Shown in pieces: positions 2,536 through 51,594 of a DNA stretch of 64,000 bases. This stretch comes from a phage. A model generated the notes under the pieces. It worked only from the letters and a program-made list of their open reading frames with translations, had not been told where the DNA came from and ran no database searches. Location: the NCBI GenBank assembly GCA_012813795.1, contig GCA_012813795.1_4087.1; one strand, 5' to 3'. Every line of letters starts with the position of its first letter. Position 1 is the first letter of the stretch. Both the position numbers and the translations under genes were made by a program.

Positions 2536-2564
2536 ATTATACTGCTATTATTCAGTACTGTCAA
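2536..2564 (-). promoter_or_regulatory. sigma-70-type early promoter
   Basis: Minus strand reads TTGACA-N17-TATAAT followed by GTTTAT; spacer starts GTACTG. Confidence 0.7.
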
Positions 2565-2839
2565 TCGATATAAGTACCTTTTTTAACATCACAGACTTCT
2601 TCCATCCAATGTGGATTTTCGTTTTTATCAGTGAAGATTTGTTCTGCTTCTTCTTTTGTTTCAGCTAGGACGATACGGTCCCCATCATCCAAAACACGGA
2701 TACGATAAACTTTCAGTTCTTGTTTCTGCTCAAGGATATTACACAGTTCACGTGCTTTTTCTTCATCGCACTCCCCTTCATTAGCATAAAACCAGATTGC
2801 TTTTTTAATAAGGTCACGTTCTTCTTTGGTAAAAGACAT
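2561..2839 (-). CDS. hypothetical acidic protein (92 aa)
   Basis: ORF track; downstream of promoter 2885..2912. Confidence 0.55.
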   Translation of the reverse strand: MSFTKEERDLIKKAIWFYANEGECDEEKARELCNILEQKQELKVYRIRVLDDGDRIVLAETKEEAEQIFTDKNENPHWMEEVCDVKKGTYID

Positions 2840-3481: not shown

Positions 3482-4276
3482 TTAAATTACATAGGGTTTA
3501 TAGTAATGAATCTCATTTGCTATTGCAGTGAAAACTTTCTTATTAAATCTTTCACCATAATCACGAAGTGATTCACCTTCTACGCTTTCAATAAAGTAAT
3601 TATATACTGGTAGTCGTGCACTGTCAATACCTATAAACGATTTCATGTAAATTTGTACTAAACGATTCATACCTGAATTTAAACATTCAACATCAAAGTG
3701 CTTGATACCTTTGTCTAAGTGCTTGAATGCATTGATGATACCACGCTTGAAATCACGCTCCATAGTACTGAATAGATTCTCAGGAAACACTGTAATCGGA
3801 GACATGGATTTAAGAATGTATGTATCTTTTGCATTCTTGATGTACTCAATGAAGCAGTAGTTTACATTAGGCTCAATTGAACGGTCTGCATTATGATACC
3901 AGTACTTAAACTCGCTGTACTCTGCGAACTTATGCTGGCGTAAGGCATTACAATCCTCACACAGTGCAGTCATGTTCTCTTTATCATTACCACCCTGAAG
4001 ACAGTCAAGTACATTATGGTCTAACGTCATGCGTACAAGGCGTTTCCCTTTAAGTACATAAGGTCTGAATTTATAACGGTCTTTAGTACTGTGCTTATGT
4101 AAAGTGAATACTACATTGGATTCACCACAACAATCACATTTAAAGCCGTCACGAGACATTACATGAATGAGTTTGCGAGTATTAGGTCCAAACTCAGATT
4201 TAGTAATATTATCCACAATTTCTGATGGTTGGTAATATTTTGAATTCAGTCGAATCAATTCATCGATAGTACTCAT
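3482..4276 (-). CDS. HNH-motif nuclease domain protein
   Basis: CDCCG...LDHNVLDCLQGGNDKENMTALCEDCNALR (Cys pairs flanking H-N-N); start moved to MSTIDE with GAGGA SD just after upstream stop. Confidence 0.65.
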   Translation of the reverse strand: MSTIDELIRLNSKYYQPSEIVDNITKSEFGPNTRKLIHVMSRDGFKCDCCGESNVVFTLHKHSTKDRYKFRPYVLKGKRLVRMTLDHNVLDCLQGGNDKENMTALCEDCNALRQHKFAEYSEFKYWYHNADRSIEPNVNYCFIEYIKNAKDTYILKSMSPITVFPENLFSTMERDFKRGIINAFKHLDKGIKHFDVECLNSGMNRLVQIYMKSFIGIDSARLPVYNYFIESVEGESLRDYGERFNKKVFTAIANEIHYYKPYVI

Positions 4277-4277
4277 T

Positions 4278-4502
4278 TTAGATTTCCTCTTCACTGCATT
4301 CGGTGATTACTTTTTTAACCTCTATAACTCTTACTAAATGATACCCGCACCTATGGTTGAAATTAAACATGTTTACTAATGCATCAGCTTCTGTTTTTGC
4401 CCTAAATTGGAGATTATATATGTGCATAGTTTCATCGAGTGAGGCTTCACCTTTGCTATTGAAAACAATTTTACAAACTTCAAACCTTACTCGATAAATC
4501 AT
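4278..4502 (-). CDS. hypothetical protein (74 aa)
   Basis: ORF track; 4-nt overlap upstream. Confidence 0.45.
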   Translation of the reverse strand: MIYRVRFEVCKIVFNSKGEASLDETMHIYNLQFRAKTEADALVNMFNFNHRCGYHLVRVIEVKKVITECSEEEI

Positions 4503-5324: not shown

Positions 5325-5358
5325 TAAAAAAAGGGCTGACCTAAGTCAACCCTTTTTC
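5325..5358. terminator. bidirectional rho-independent terminator
   Basis: A7-AGGGCTGAC-CTAA-GTCAACCCT-T5 directly after the sigma gene stop. Confidence 0.75.
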
Positions 5359-5359
5359 T

Positions 5360-6322
5360 TTAGAAATCTTCGTATTCGTACCCTTTTTCAAGTACTATTT
5401 TTTTAAGCTTTTGAATAGCTTCACTATATTTTCGGTGCACAGATGAACGGGACTTAACAATGTTTCCTTTATCATCAACATATCCATTATCAGAAATTTC
5501 ACGAAGGGTTTCTGCTTTGTAATCCCCAAGACCATGAACACGCATGATAATTTCTCGTTCTTTAGTACTCAATTCGTCAATGATTTCTGTGATTGCATAA
5601 CGTAATGGATTACAAATGCTATCAACATTAAGGTTATAATCACGAGCAGATGAACTCAGAATATCCCCAAGGGTTCCGTCTGAATCTGAACCCAGTTGTG
5701 CATCAAGAGTCGTATATGCATTCTGGTATAACAAACAGTTCTTAACGTGCTGAAGCTCGATACCAGTACTCTCAGAGATTAATTCTGGTGTTGGTCGCTT
5801 ACCGTGTTCACGTTGATATGATTCATTAAATCGACGTACTTGGATGTTATGAACGCTCATATAACGTGGTAAGTACACCATGTAATTTGCATCTGAACTT
5901 TCATTATACATAGTCATATAAACGGACGTTGTTGCATATGTAATGAATTTGACATTCTTACTAAGATCAAAGGTTTTAAGTGCTCGCATAAAACCTTCTA
6001 CGCCATATGCAATTTTATCTTCAAACGGAATATAACATGTACACTTTGAAGCAACGTCAACAATCATACCATAGTTGTAACGAAGTAATAGGTCAGTATT
6101 CTTTTTTACATTAATCCCAGCACGAATCTCTTCTATGATAGATTCATTAGTTACACCTGCTGGACGTTTAATACTGATATTACTTTTACTACGAACTTTA
6201 TGTGGAATATCATCTTCAATAACTTCTGATGGTTCAATTGCTTCCAATGGATTGACTTCTTCATTCGCAAAACATTCATCCAGTACTTCTTCGGAAATTG
6301 CGTTTAAGTCTAGTTTCTTCAC
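5360..6322 (-). CDS. sigma-70 family RNA polymerase sigma factor (320 aa)
   Basis: Collinear with sigma-70 regions 2-4: FITYATTSVYM..., GKRPTPELISESTGIE, LGSDSDGTLGDIL, STKEREIIMRVHGL, C-terminal HTH. Confidence 0.85.
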   Translation of the reverse strand: MKKLDLNAISEEVLDECFANEEVNPLEAIEPSEVIEDDIPHKVRSKSNISIKRPAGVTNESIIEEIRAGINVKKNTDLLLRYNYGMIVDVASKCTCYIPFEDKIAYGVEGFMRALKTFDLSKNVKFITYATTSVYMTMYNESSDANYMVYLPRYMSVHNIQVRRFNESYQREHGKRPTPELISESTGIELQHVKNCLLYQNAYTTLDAQLGSDSDGTLGDILSSSARDYNLNVDSICNPLRYAITEIIDELSTKEREIIMRVHGLGDYKAETLREISDNGYVDDKGNIVKSRSSVHRKYSEAIQKLKKIVLEKGYEYEDF

Positions 6323-6343: not shown

Positions 6344-6841
6344 TCAAAATTGGTATACATTAATATTGTCGTCAGTATATTCATCGTGGTTTTTTACCTC
6401 TTTGAAAGTACTGAATATTTTTTGAAGTAGTGTGTCTTGGTTCTCATGCACAGCAGCATCAACCATGTACTCTCCACCACTTCCCATGAAGAATACATAT
6501 TCCTCATGCATGAACTCAAGGTACTTAAAAAACTTCCCGTTCTTTGTTCCTAAGTGAATACAATAATCTTTGGACAACAAGACACAATGGCAGTTCTCTT
6601 TTCTACTGGGCAGTACTATATCACCATATATCAAATACATCAAGACTTTATTGATTTCATTCACTGAACCTGCTGCACTAAACAGACGATCATGAATGTA
6701 TAATGATTTTTGAGTAACTACACCATATTGTTTTTTTGGTTTTAACGGGAATAATCCGAGAAAGTACCTCTCTGTAGAGGTTGTTACTCTTGAATCAGTG
6801 AGCAATAATCCAACACGCTTGTCAACATATACTGTAGTCAT
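6344..6841 (-). CDS. HslV / proteasome-beta-like Ntn-hydrolase (165 aa)
   Basis: N-terminal MTTVYV (Thr nucleophile after Met removal), FSAAGSVNE vs HslV GFAGGTADA, MGSGGEYMVDAA vs HslV IGSGGPYAQAAA. Confidence 0.5.
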   Translation of the reverse strand: MTTVYVDKRVGLLLTDSRVTTSTERYFLGLFPLKPKKQYGVVTQKSLYIHDRLFSAAGSVNEINKVLMYLIYGDIVLPSRKENCHCVLLSKDYCIHLGTKNGKFFKYLEFMHEEYVFFMGSGGEYMVDAAVHENQDTLLQKIFSTFKEVKNHDEYTDDNINVYQF

Positions 6842-6842
6842 T

Positions 6843-7268
6843 CTACACCTTATCTAAGAATGCGGAATATATATCAATTTCTCTTCCTTTCAATACCTTA
6901 TCAAATGGGAAGGGATCTTTACTTCCAGTTAATATACCAAGTTTTGTGAAAAAATACAAGGCAATGAATTCAGTTATTTTGATGTTTTTCTTACTCTTAA
7001 CCAATTCTGCATAAGCAGAATTATAATCAAATTTTGTAGATGAACCATCAAATCCAAAATAGTGAATGTTGTAATTTTTTGAAAAGTTACTAACTGTCAT
7101 TCTTTCACATATCAAATCAATGGCTACTTTGGACCTACAATGCTTATTGAGTAAATCATAATTACAATTATTCAATGCCTCGTATATATCAAAAGACTCT
7201 TGAGCCAGTGTATGTACTTTAGGCTTAATTAGTTTACTTAGTAAGTACCTTATCTTTTTCAGAATCAT
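6843..7268 (-). CDS. hypothetical protein (141 aa)
   Basis: ORF track. Confidence 0.5.
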   Translation of the reverse strand: MILKKIRYLLSKLIKPKVHTLAQESFDIYEALNNCNYDLLNKHCRSKVAIDLICERMTVSNFSKNYNIHYFGFDGSSTKFDYNSAYAELVKSKKNIKITEFIALYFFTKLGILTGSKDPFPFDKVLKGREIDIYSAFLDKV

Positions 7269-7701
7269 AATAGTACTGCATCTCCGAAAGTAACATTACC
7301 TTATCAATATCAGGGAATGAATCAATAAGTAATGCTTTGATTTCATCCTTTAGCTCTTTGGCTTTTACAGACCATCCTTTGTAATAAGCTTGGAGGATGG
7401 GATCTTTCTTATGCATAGTATCTAATGCATTAACAGCGTAATCCACATGAAATGCAAGTACACCACATAGTTCTTCAATGTACTTCATCTTCATGTTATG
7501 AATATCGCGTTTAGCAGCGTTTGCAAGCACTGTGAACGCAGAATGCATATCACTAAGAGTATGTACTTCAAGTTTATAAAGGTCTTCACAAATGGCTACA
7601 ACGCGTTTTTCTGCCTTGGCTTGCTTAGAGTCTGCTTGGAAAAACAATTCAGACGGTGGATAGACCTTAGTTTTTTCTACCCATTGAACTAATTTATTCA
7701 C
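7234..7701 (-). CDS. hypothetical protein (155 aa)
   Basis: ORF track. Confidence 0.5.
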   Translation of the reverse strand: MNKLVQWVEKTKVYPPSELFFQADSKQAKAEKRVVAICEDLYKLEVHTLSDMHSAFTVLANAAKRDIHNMKMKYIEELCGVLAFHVDYAVNALDTMHKKDPILQAYYKGWSVKAKELKDEIKALLIDSFPDIDKVMLLSEMQYYYDSEKDKVLTK

Positions 7702-7973
7702 AGTACACCCTCTTCAAAAGATTCAGAAATGATCAGAGCATCATCGTAGTCGTCAGCAACAGAACGTACTACATCTAAATTAGTTTTACCTTGAACACTC
7801 TTAACATCGTTCATGAGATAATTAAGATCTACTTTAGTAACTTTTTCAGAATCGAATACACAAAAAGTAAGTTCAGTATCAGGGCAAATGTTTTTAAGAT
7901 TATTAGAAATAACTTTTTTAAAATCAAAAGACGGAGAAGCAACCAGGTTTACTGCTACTAGAATAGAGTTCAT
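7698..7973 (-). CDS. hypothetical protein (91 aa)
   Basis: ORF track; first gene after promoter 8014..8042. Confidence 0.5.
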   Translation of the reverse strand: MNSILVAVNLVASPSFDFKKVISNNLKNICPDTELTFCVFDSEKVTKVDLNYLMNDVKSVQGKTNLDVVRSVADDYDDALIISESFEEGVL

Positions 7974-8013: not shown

Positions 8014-8042
8014 ATTGTACTCCTATATTTCAGTACTGTCAA
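8014..8042 (-). promoter_or_regulatory. sigma-70-type promoter
   Basis: TTGACA-N17-TACAAT; spacer begins GTACTG. Confidence 0.65.
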
Positions 8043-8327: not shown

Positions 8328-8356
8328 ATTATATCCCTTAACACATTTTATGTCAA
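8328..8356 (-). promoter_or_regulatory. sigma-70-type promoter
   Basis: TTGACA-N17-TATAAT. Confidence 0.65.
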
Positions 8357-50020: not shown

Positions 50021-50641
50021 TTATTTTTTCATTAGTTCGTAAATTTTTAGACGAAGTTCGCTCCAATTATTAACATAATCAAAGCCGTTGTTATGCTTGT
50101 ATTCATGGTTATGACACGCACACATCATAACAGCAGGTATATCCAACTCTATAGCCGTTTCTATATTTTTAATATAATCGTCAATCAAAAATTTAACGTC
50201 ATATTGAGCTTTTAATTTCATTAGTGCTGATTTTTTGGATTCATACATTTCAATGATAATGATATCATCAAAAATACCCTCACCAAAGACATTAATGAGA
50301 TTCACATTACGGAGAACTTCTCCGTGTCCGAATGTACCCGATTTAGTCAGTACTACAAATTTATCATATGGGAACTTATCACGTAATTCTTGCATAATTC
50401 CAACCGTGTTATGTTCTACTGGGTCAAGTAGACCAAACTCATAAGAACGATGGTTGAAGTGTTTTAGAATCTCTTGCACTTCAGGTTGAGTAATTCCACC
50501 CAACCACTGACACAAATCATATTTTTCTGGATATGGTGTTTCTGGATGAATATCATAATGTTCTTTAACAAAATTATATAGACCACCAATGTGGTCCAAT
50601 AGCACTTCATCACAATCCCATACTACACAACGTTGTTTCAT
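50021..50641 (-). CDS. HAD-superfamily hydrolase, 5'(3')-deoxyribonucleotidase-like (206 aa)
   Basis: N-terminal DxD motif VVWDCDEVLLD; start moved to the TAATG overlap with the clamp-loader stop. Confidence 0.5.
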   Translation of the reverse strand: MKQRCVVWDCDEVLLDHIGGLYNFVKEHYDIHPETPYPEKYDLCQWLGGITQPEVQEILKHFNHRSYEFGLLDPVEHNTVGIMQELRDKFPYDKFVVLTKSGTFGHGEVLRNVNLINVFGEGIFDDIIIIEMYESKKSALMKLKAQYDVKFLIDDYIKNIETAIELDIPAVMMCACHNHEYKHNNGFDYVNNWSELRLKIYELMKK

Positions 50642-51594
50642 TACATATTTCCTGAACAAATCAAGTCAATTTCACATAGTAATGCACTCAGGTTCATCTC
50701 ACGATCAGAAACTGTTGATTGTTTGACAACTGCATCACGGATTTTAACCTTGATTTTCATTAGTGTGATTTCATCAGTACTGAACATTTCTGCATTACGA
50801 TACAGATACGAGAAAAACGCATCCATTTCGTCATCAGGGATATTTTGAACAATCTGCTCACGCATCTGACGAATGTTTCCCGCCTTTAATGCATCAACGA
50901 TTGCCGTGCGATACCCAGCAGAATTCTCAATACTGTCTTCTAGTTTTACTAGTTTACCATCAACTACTGAACTCTGCAATACGTTTAATGTTTTGCGGAA
51001 GTCAGGGTACGATGCATTGATGTATTGCTGCACTTGATCAATACTTTCTTCTGATGATAAATCTACACCCTCAGCTAACAGTACGTTGATGATACGGGTC
51101 ATAAACTGTTCCATATCATGCTTCTCGATTGTAATTACTTGCACACGAGAAATAATAGGTTTCAAAATTTTATGTGGCTCATTACTGGTTAGAATAAAAC
51201 GAGCATTCTCGTGATAATCTTCCATGACACGCTTCAGGCTACCTTGTGCTTTGTGGTTCATCTGTTCCATTTCTTCCAGAACAAATACACGATAACGTCC
51301 AAAACATGATAGTTTTGCGGCAGCGTCAATCTTATCACGCACAGCATCAATACCCTCATCTGACATGTTTAGAGTTGTTACATCACTTGGGTCCAGGTGA
51401 CCATTAGCTTCAAGTCCATTTAGTAGTACTTTAATCGCTGAAGTTTTTCCTGTACCAGCGGGACCAAAGAATCCAATATGTGGAATATTGCCAGTACAAA
51501 TCCATTCTTCCATCTTTTTACGAAGAGCATCATTTTTGAAAACGTAATCTTCTAGGGTTTGTGGGCGATATTTTTCAGTCCATAGTGTAGTCAT
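50641..51594 (-). CDS. RFC/gp44-like clamp-loader AAA+ ATPase (317 aa)
   Basis: WTEKYRPQTLEDYV, Walker A GPAGTGKTS, Walker B VFVLEEM, sensor ISRVQV. Confidence 0.85.
   Translation of the reverse strand: MTTLWTEKYRPQTLEDYVFKNDALRKKMEEWICTGNIPHIGFFGPAGTGKTSAIKVLLNGLEANGHLDPSDVTTLNMSDEGIDAVRDKIDAAAKLSCFGRYRVFVLEEMEQMNHKAQGSLKRVMEDYHENARFILTSNEPHKILKPIISRVQVITIEKHDMEQFMTRIINVLLAEGVDLSSEESIDQVQQYINASYPDFRKTLNVLQSSVVDGKLVKLEDSIENSAGYRTAIVDALKAGNIRQMREQIVQNIPDDEMDAFFSYLYRNAEMFSTDEITLMKIKVKIRDAVVKQSTVSDREMNLSALLCEIDLICSGNM

Follow-up and report, generated by a model that had tools for sequence, protein, structure and literature searches.

The window, by which we mean the whole 64,000-nucleotide stretch of phage DNA analyzed here, carries at 6344..6841 on the minus strand an open reading frame (ORF) of 165 amino acids that, judged by its reading frame, predicted fold and conserved residues, probably encodes a proteasome-like (T1-type) N-terminal-threonine hydrolase, referred to here as the peptidase. 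Its translation, MTTVYVDKRVGLLLTDSRV..., is an exact match to that of an initial annotation made from the letters of the DNA, which had described a 165-amino-acid ORF beginning MTTVYV; our ORF call and translation bear this out. The ATG start codon is the earliest start available 3' of an in-frame stop codon, and an N-terminal extension is therefore ruled out. As read from the sequence, the Shine-Dalgarno-like motif AAGGTG (6846..6851, minus strand) is located 4 nt 5' of this ATG, and the TAG stop codon of the upstream gene (6843..6845, minus strand) ends 1 nt before it. The gene of a full-length, 320-amino-acid sigma-70-family factor (5360..6322, minus strand; Pfam Sigma70_r2, r3 and r4; phrog_351) follows 21 bp downstream, at the distance previously described, and the gap holds only an AGGAGA ribosome-binding site. 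The window region shares 97.7% identity with the 355-kb Asteriusvirus Escherichia phage A4 and approximately 75% with 121Q, PBECO4, phAPEC6 and their relatives; A4, 121Q, PBECO4 and phAPEC6 are members of the RaK2-like group of jumbo myoviruses.

The N terminus is the most constant part of the protein. All 36 homologues in our alignment begin with MTT, and all matches of an exhaustive database search align from residue 1. A threonine that follows the initiator methionine is a standard substrate of methionine aminopeptidase, and we infer from the sequence that the methionine is removed and that the threonine is exposed, in agreement with the initial annotation, which had proposed a threonine nucleophile. 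A mis-called start that would leave the threonine inside the chain, named there as one finding that would refute the proposal, was considered and rejected, as no earlier start is available and MTT is invariant.

For fold prediction and conservation analysis, 36 family sequences with 24 to 84% identity were aligned. With this alignment, AlphaFold2 returned a model with a predicted local distance difference test (pLDDT) score of 95 and a predicted template modeling (pTM) score of 0.85, and all five models scored 94 to 95; a run with only the 13 closest homologues gave a pLDDT of 43 and an unusable model. The model displays the four-layer alpha-beta-beta-alpha sandwich of the N-terminal nucleophile (Ntn) hydrolases. 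A structure search, proposed at the outset as a check on the HslV likeness, supported it: in a Foldseek comparison with the PDB, the top six matches were all HslV, with E values of 1e-5 to 1e-4 (1g3i, 1m4y, 6kui, 4hnz and 1ned are among the top matches), followed by archaeal 20S beta subunits and connectase. Sequence identity between the model and the HslV structures is only 13 to 19%. A chance resemblance to HslV was rejected, since the fold and the residue pattern agree, and the predicted fold of the peptidase is that of the proteasome superfamily of Ntn hydrolases.

Eight of the 165 positions (M1, T2, T3, K45, G58, G120, G122 and D153) are invariant in the 36 sequences, and six more (T15, D16, T20, H50, G102 and S121) are at least 90% conserved. 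Position 16 is Asp in 35 sequences and Glu in 1, position 121 is Ser in 34 and Thr in 2, and position 156 is Thr in 21 and Ser in 15. Conservation marks seven codons, all on the minus strand, as putatively catalytic, namely, those for Thr2 (6836..6838), which would become Thr1 of the processed protein, Asp16 (6794..6796), Lys45 (6707..6709), Gly58 (6668..6670), Ser121 (6479..6481), Asp153 (6383..6385) and Thr156 (6374..6376). We take positions 121, 153 and 156 to be the counterparts of Ser129, Asp166 and Ser169 of 20S beta subunits. The catalytic set of the proteasome comprises Thr1, Asp/Glu17, Lys33 and the oxyanion Gly47 (PMC8665760), and the conserved residues of the peptidase keep the order and local context of this set. 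In the model, T-D16-S-R ends a hydrophobic strand and K45 opens the following one, A-A-G58 closes the strand preceding helix 1, G-S121-G-G sits before helix 3, and D153-x-x-T156 sits before the final strand. As far as the alignment can tell, the proteasome-type catalytic residues are what selection has kept in this family.

The HslV-like landmarks pointed out in the initial annotation thus go beyond chance, with eight invariant positions in 36 sequences that diverge down to 24% identity. The alignment proposed for them held only in part. The GSGG block does match the GSGG of HslV in an hhalign comparison, but the register in which FSAAGSVNE was set against GFAGGTADA is probably off by about 3 residues. 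FSAAGSVNE lies in the correct region; by motif context, however, Gly58, which ends strand 52-58 just ahead of helix 60-72, matches I-A-G45 of HslV and not G48/G49.

While HslV is the nearest solved structure, the label "HslV" does not hold for the family, which fails both the sequence and the architecture criteria for HslV as far as sequence comparison and model can show. The curated HslV and Proteasome sequence models do not recognize the phage protein: neither Pfam PF00227 (Proteasome) nor TIGR03692/PRK05456 gave a significant match. HslV and the proteasome have two helices, H1 and H2, where the peptidase model has a single helix (residues 60-72) between strands 52-58 and 84-89, with a loop leading to the latter, and helix H2 is missing. 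The spacing from the oxyanion Gly to the Ser is 79 residues in E. coli HslV and 63 residues (Gly58 to Ser121) in the peptidase. The segment between Asp and Lys differs in the opposite direction, being approximately 11 residues longer in the peptidase than in HslV or the proteasome. Here the model places an elongated beta-hairpin between Asp16 and Lys45 (residues 18-41, codons at 6718..6790, minus strand; DSSP strands 18-27 and 31-41), and length variation within the family falls mainly here (indels at alignment columns 27 to 43). In addition, Cys160 of HslV (Cys159 of the mature protein) is replaced by Asp in the peptidase, giving a proteasome-like D-x-x-S/T arrangement, according to a weak hhalign alignment. 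The peptidase ends at strand 160-164 of the model. Finally, HslV (ClpQ; MEROPS T01B; TIGR03692) works with HslU, whereas no hslU gene lies beside the peptidase gene or, judging by the record counts given below, in this phage group.

A better comparison is offered by the 22 new proteasome homologues described by Fuchs, Alva and Lupas in 2021 (PMC8665760), among which PPH and RPC are the described homologues without H2. There, PPH, which is described by computation only and has no assigned function, is presented as the first genuinely viral proteasome homologue (PMC8665760). Like the peptidase, PPH is encoded by tailed phages of Proteobacteria, is a compact group-I proteasome homologue near HslV and BPH without a propeptide, lacks helix H2 as well as the C-terminal elements S12 and H5, and keeps the catalytic Thr1/Asp17/Lys33/Gly47. 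The two differ in length (approximately 140 residues for PPH and 165 for the peptidase) because of the elongated variable hairpin 18-41 between Asp and Lys. Compared by description, the peptidase therefore resembles PPH-type homologues most, except for the extra hairpin and its length. It is much smaller than 20S beta subunits, Anbu and BPH, lacks their propeptide, H2 and C-terminal H5, and is phage encoded without an alpha-type partner. Connectase, an archaeal protein ligase, has neither H1 nor H2, and its S3 and S4 are separated by an inserted lid of two helices (PMC8665760); the peptidase, in contrast, has H1 and a beta-hairpin insertion and lies in no MtrA-like substrate context.

Proteasome-fold genes occur repeatedly in other jumbo phages, sometimes without HslU. 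These belong to different sequence families and resemble the peptidase at the level of the fold only (Foldseek TM scores of about 0.5 to 0.7 with 10 to 23% identity); matches of this kind in BFVD come from CcrBL9, RisingSun, Noxifer, PhiPA3 and others, and the relative in Caulobacter phage CcrBL9 is a "proteasome subunit beta." An orphan HslV has also been noted in Salmonella phage pSal-SNUABM-04 (ORF1/116; PMC7823757). Phage proteasome homologues of this general kind have thus already been described, and the present family adds to them.

Taken together, we consider it likely, with a probability of roughly 70%, that the peptidase is a catalytically competent, compact Ntn hydrolase without H2 and most like the PPH type, and its residues and model suggest that it is probably active. 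If the mechanism of HslV and 20S beta subunits is taken as a guide, removal of the methionine would make the threonine residue 1, and the hydroxyl of this Thr1 would attack the peptide bond, helped by its own amino group and by the invariant Lys45. Asp16 would orient Lys45, the backbone of Gly58 would provide the oxyanion hole, and Ser121, Asp153 and Thr156 would hold Thr1 in position, while the long variable hairpin by the active-site cleft may set specificity. The protein would be synthesized early from a host-sigma-70-type promoter, on a transcript common with the phage sigma gene, and would not be part of the virion. Since no unfoldase partner is encoded by the phage itself, the most likely mode of action is that of a stand-alone peptidase, or possibly a transpeptidase, which during takeover would target a single protein or a small number of proteins of the host or the phage. 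Activity as an Ntn amidohydrolase toward something other than protein, for example a small-molecule amide, a peptide derived from peptidoglycan or a nucleotide-linked signal, is conceivable but quite improbable.

Several points weigh against an active, early-made peptidase of this type. Isolated proteasome-type subunits are usually inactive before ring assembly. The residue equivalences to the proteasome were judged by order, motif context and secondary structure. Furthermore, an hhalign comparison of the family with an alignment of 81 gammaproteobacterial HslV sequences recovered only a block from GSGG to the C terminus, with a probability of 22% (E value of 9e-4), and matches to the promoter consensus are overall no more numerous in the window than in shuffled sequence. 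With E. coli HslV alone, hhalign aligned only the GSGG block. A second local block between the family and HslV, pairing residues 1-14 of both N termini, was not significant. The relatives of E. coli HslV listed for the profile had at least 86% identity, too little diversity to serve it well, and a scan of contigs widened this range only to approximately 73%. A forced global alignment of the family with HslV was discarded as meaningless.

The initial annotation had stated that the window contains no HslU-like ATPase, and this proved correct. No HslU-like gene was found in the 64-kb window by tblastn (best E value of 1.3), and the only ORF with a Walker A motif of the AAA+ type encodes a gp44-like clamp-loader large subunit (50641..51594, minus strand; DNA_pol3_delta2, AAA and Gp44_lid). 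By tblastn, E. coli HslU matched 164 phage records, most of them from Erwinia jumbo phages, Lak phages and PA5oct. Escherichia accounts for only 4 of these records, compared with 33 Escherichia records that bear the peptidase gene, from which we infer that the 121Q/RaK2-like group encodes no HslU- or ClpX-like protein. Some records labeled as phage contain canonical bacterial hslV and hslU genes with 50 to 98% identity and look like host contamination, examples being contigs of Listeria phage LM 4-11-1, Escherichia phage ECO95 1-6-1 and Salmonella AGRM01000004.

A phage group without its own unfoldase could in principle borrow that of the host, as the initial annotation had suggested, with rings of the phage subunit docking on the host HslU hexamer and redirecting ATP-dependent unfolding to substrates chosen by the phage. 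HslV is the single best structural match of the peptidase, the two proteins share the lack of a propeptide (MTTVYV in the phage protein and (M)TTIVSV in HslV of the E. coli host), and all known hosts (Escherichia, Klebsiella, Salmonella and Erwinia) have hslVU, which a read of the locus confirmed for E. coli. In HslV, however, both the pocket for the HslU C-terminal tail and activation depend in part on residues of helix H2, among them Arg86, Arg89 and Leu88, and the absence of H2 from the peptidase model hence argues against the use of host HslU. With 13 to 19% identity to HslV and a profile alignment restricted to the GSGG block, little of the interface could be conserved. Moreover, phage groups that use an HslVU-like system, such as the Erwinia Ea35-70-like phages, encode their own HslU-like ATPase, which the RaK2/121Q-like group does not. 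We therefore regard such a hybrid protease as possible but unlikely. An HslV-like fold without a partner ATPase would also suit a non-catalytic decoy that mimics HslV and protects phage proteins by titrating or blocking host HslU or HslVU, and phages commonly encode inhibitors of host proteases. A decoy would nevertheless have no reason to keep Thr1, Asp/Glu16, Lys45, Gly58, Ser/Thr121 and Asp153 down to 24% identity amid change at nearly all other positions, and the H2 region needed for contact with HslU is missing, making this explanation highly improbable.

The family to which the peptidase belongs is tiny and, among isolated phages, is confined to the RaK2/121Q-like jumbo phages. By tblastn, the gene is present in 52 of 50,697 phage records, with identity down to 30%, and two divergent family queries retrieved an identical set of records. 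These are Caudoviricetes jumbo phages of Escherichia (n = 33), Klebsiella and Salmonella plus one Erwinia phage. The exhaustive search with a hidden Markov model, which covered 1.84 billion representative proteins, yielded 15 family representatives at the 50% identity level, and a profile word search added a few further members. Family proteins range from 165 to 185 amino acids in length.

Existing classifications recognize the family only in part. The window protein is assigned to phrog_24804 (E value of 2.6e-79), a group of unknown function. It has no match at an E value of ≤1 to phrog_1040, the "peptidase HslV family," but 25 of the 36 family members do match this group, with a best E value of 8.8e-11, and the alignment of the 121Q-type orthologue (E value of 2.8e-6) starts at residue 1. 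Likewise, the window protein gave no match to PF00227 at an E value of ≤1, nor to any other Pfam or NCBIfam model, including TIGR03692/PRK05456. PF00227 is weakly matched by 2 of 23 family members (best E value of 0.021) and TIGR03692 by 1 of 36 (E value of approximately 0.06), and TIGR03634 gave weak matches in a few members. Single-sequence and profile searches against PDB sequences returned nothing relevant for the peptidase. In GenBank, most members are labeled hypothetical protein; the homologue of fEgEco12 is annotated as "ATP-dependent protease subunit HslV" and that of Turkey3 as "ATP-dependent protease." The HslV annotation of fEgEco12 goes unmentioned in the paper on that phage, a comparative paper on jumbo phages mentions neither HslV nor the proteasome, and none of the papers found in our literature search discusses the gene.

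The peptidase gene is located within a tightly packed set of genes on the minus strand. Upstream of it lie three genes of unknown function, encoding proteins of 141 (6843..7268), 155 (7234..7701) and 91 (7698..7973) amino acids. These have matches to phrog_37211 and phrog_3576, both of unknown function, and no Pfam match was found for any of the three. Directly 3' of the sigma stop codon, a strong intrinsic terminator hairpin with an A-run, a GC stem and a T-run (5326..5359, minus strand) was identified by RNA folding (dG of -21 kcal/mol, z score of -5.5, with none of 200 shuffled sequences as stable), and the same hairpin follows the sigma gene of fEgEco12. This terminator probably marks the end of the transcription unit. 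With a gap of just 21 bp and the only strong terminator located after the sigma gene, the sequence indicates that the peptidase and sigma genes are almost certainly cotranscribed in the window phage.

Of the strong candidate promoters, the one nearest to the unit from 7973 to 5360 is a sigma-70-type sequence, TTGACA-17-TACAAT (8014..8042, minus strand), which agrees with the consensus at 11 of 12 positions and is identified by this match only. A further sequence, TTGACA-17-TATAAT at 8328..8356 on the minus strand and farther upstream, matches the consensus at all 12 positions and is of a type usual in the early region of these phages. In the related phage CBB, RpoD-like promoters are concentrated in the early region that contains the sigma gene, and this region was interpreted as one of early takeover genes (PMC5259590). 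In the record of fENko-Kae01, the neighbors of the peptidase gene, and not the peptidase itself, were flagged by liquid chromatography-tandem mass spectrometry (LC-MS/MS) of virions. Expression of the peptidase thus appears to be early and nonstructural.

The initial annotation placed the peptidase and sigma genes tentatively in the same operon and asked whether the pairing is conserved in relatives. Predicted cotranscription in the window and adjacency in most relatives support the pairing, but the operon is not conserved. The sigma gene lies directly downstream of the peptidase gene in fEgEco12, RaK2, Munch, fENko-Kae01 and two metagenomic relatives (28 to 29% identity) and is separated from it by one or two small ORFs in EJP2 and Hallingskeid. 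In RaK2, Munch and fENko-Kae01, however, the spacer between the two genes contains a terminator hairpin. A perfect TTGACA-17-TATAAT begins directly behind the peptidase stop codon, with no intervening base, in EJP2 and in one of the metagenomic relatives (L092), and a promoter with an 11 of 12 match is found at the same position in Munch and fENko-Kae01. These positions point to a promoter conserved ahead of the sigma gene and lost or replaced in the Asteriusvirus phages. It is of note that perfect or near-perfect host-type promoters follow the peptidase stop codon immediately in loci L003, L004, L006 and L092 and also recur throughout the early region.

Outside these genomes, the two genes often part company. 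A homologous sigma factor was detected in 77 phage records, compared with 52 records for the peptidase, and approximately 25 have the sigma factor without the peptidase. In CBB and XaC1, no peptidase gene lies upstream of the sigma gene, and neither genome was matched by any of three family queries. Furthermore, a second clade of the family (24 to 28% identity), made up of uncultured phages and with Klebsiella phage 05F01 as the nearest isolate, has no sigma neighbor. Its peptidase gene is instead accompanied by a gene for a 114-amino-acid DUF7325 protein (5548..5892 in L088, 5545..5889 in L090 and 3430..3774 in L093), which shares 14 nt with the 3' end of the peptidase gene in L090 and L093 but starts after a 1-nt gap in L088. 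The DUF7325 protein is a candidate partner or substrate of the peptidase in this clade; no DUF7325 homologue was found in the window or in the clade-1 loci. In clade-2 contigs, AAA genes are located 3 to 4 kb from the peptidase gene and have weak, generic AAA matches only.

These observations bear on a different proposal, in which the peptidase serves the takeover of transcription as a site-specific, ATPase-independent protease or ligase with a connectase-like logic, acting on the acidic N-terminal region of the phage sigma factor, on host sigma-70 or on an anti-sigma factor. The clade-1 relatives examined all carry the sigma gene directly or one to two ORFs downstream even at 28 to 29% identity, the two genes are predicted to be cotranscribed in Asteriusvirus phages, and the variable hairpin, in the stretch between Asp and Lys, lies near S3/S4, the site of the specificity element in connectase (PMC8665760). 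On the other hand, a terminator, a promoter or both split the genes in RaK2, Munch, fENko-Kae01, EJP2 and a metagenomic relative, the sigma factor occurs in many records without a detectable family member, and clade 2 is coupled to the DUF7325 gene. The small genes around the pair are syntenic as well, so that simple collinearity may suffice to explain the adjacency, and the hallmarks of connectase are absent, as H1 is kept and there is no two-helix insertion. We consider a role of this kind doubtful. The same low likelihood applies to the more specific version in which a stand-alone protease or transpeptidase cuts or ligates a transcription component in the first minutes of infection; such an enzyme might be monomeric or adopt a noncanonical assembly, given that H2 is missing. 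As judged from the sequence comparisons, the sigma pairing is a conserved adjacency and not a conserved operon. Collinearity across an early region that is itself conserved is the best account of the neighborhood, and the location next to the sigma gene should be taken as gene order and not as evidence for sigma as a substrate; the data leave room for a functional link to sigma but do not point to one.

For annotation, the gain is that a hypothetical protein becomes a proteasome-like, PPH-like Ntn peptidase; no new principle is involved, since phage proteasome-fold enzymes (PPH and AAH in 2021, together with scattered "HslV" labels) have been catalogued computationally. The peptidase is nonetheless a good target for experiments, since the protein is small, its start is unambiguous, its catalytic set is conserved throughout and its gene lies in the early takeover region. 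Its carriers include culturable, well-studied jumbo phages with therapeutic use, which infect E. coli, Klebsiella and Salmonella. Knowledge of the substrate and of any need for HslU would show how a minimal proteasome relative works without the context of a ring and an unfoldase. If action on a transcription component were true, the peptidase would be the first proteasome homologue from a virus for which a regulatory substrate is defined.

A few additional features of the window were recorded. Three genes downstream of the sigma gene is an intact, mobile-type gene for an HNH endonuclease (3482..4294, minus strand; phrog_35175, E value of 5.6e-147). An HNH gene is found at the same relative place in fEgEco12, and phage A4, the closest relative, lacks approximately 520 bp of it (window positions 3737..4256), by deletion or decay. 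The A4 orthologue (A4_187) of a 92-amino-acid ORF at 2561..2839 (minus strand) is annotated as a "sigma-70 family RNA polymerase sigma factor"; the ORF has no Pfam match at an E value of ≤1, and this label may be spurious or may denote a very divergent fragment. Lastly, five tRNA genes are located between 19131 and 23260 on the minus strand, specifying Thr(tgt), Asn(gtt), Met(cat), Ser(act) and Ser(tga), of which the tRNA-Ser with the anticodon ACT is unusual in having an A at the wobble position.

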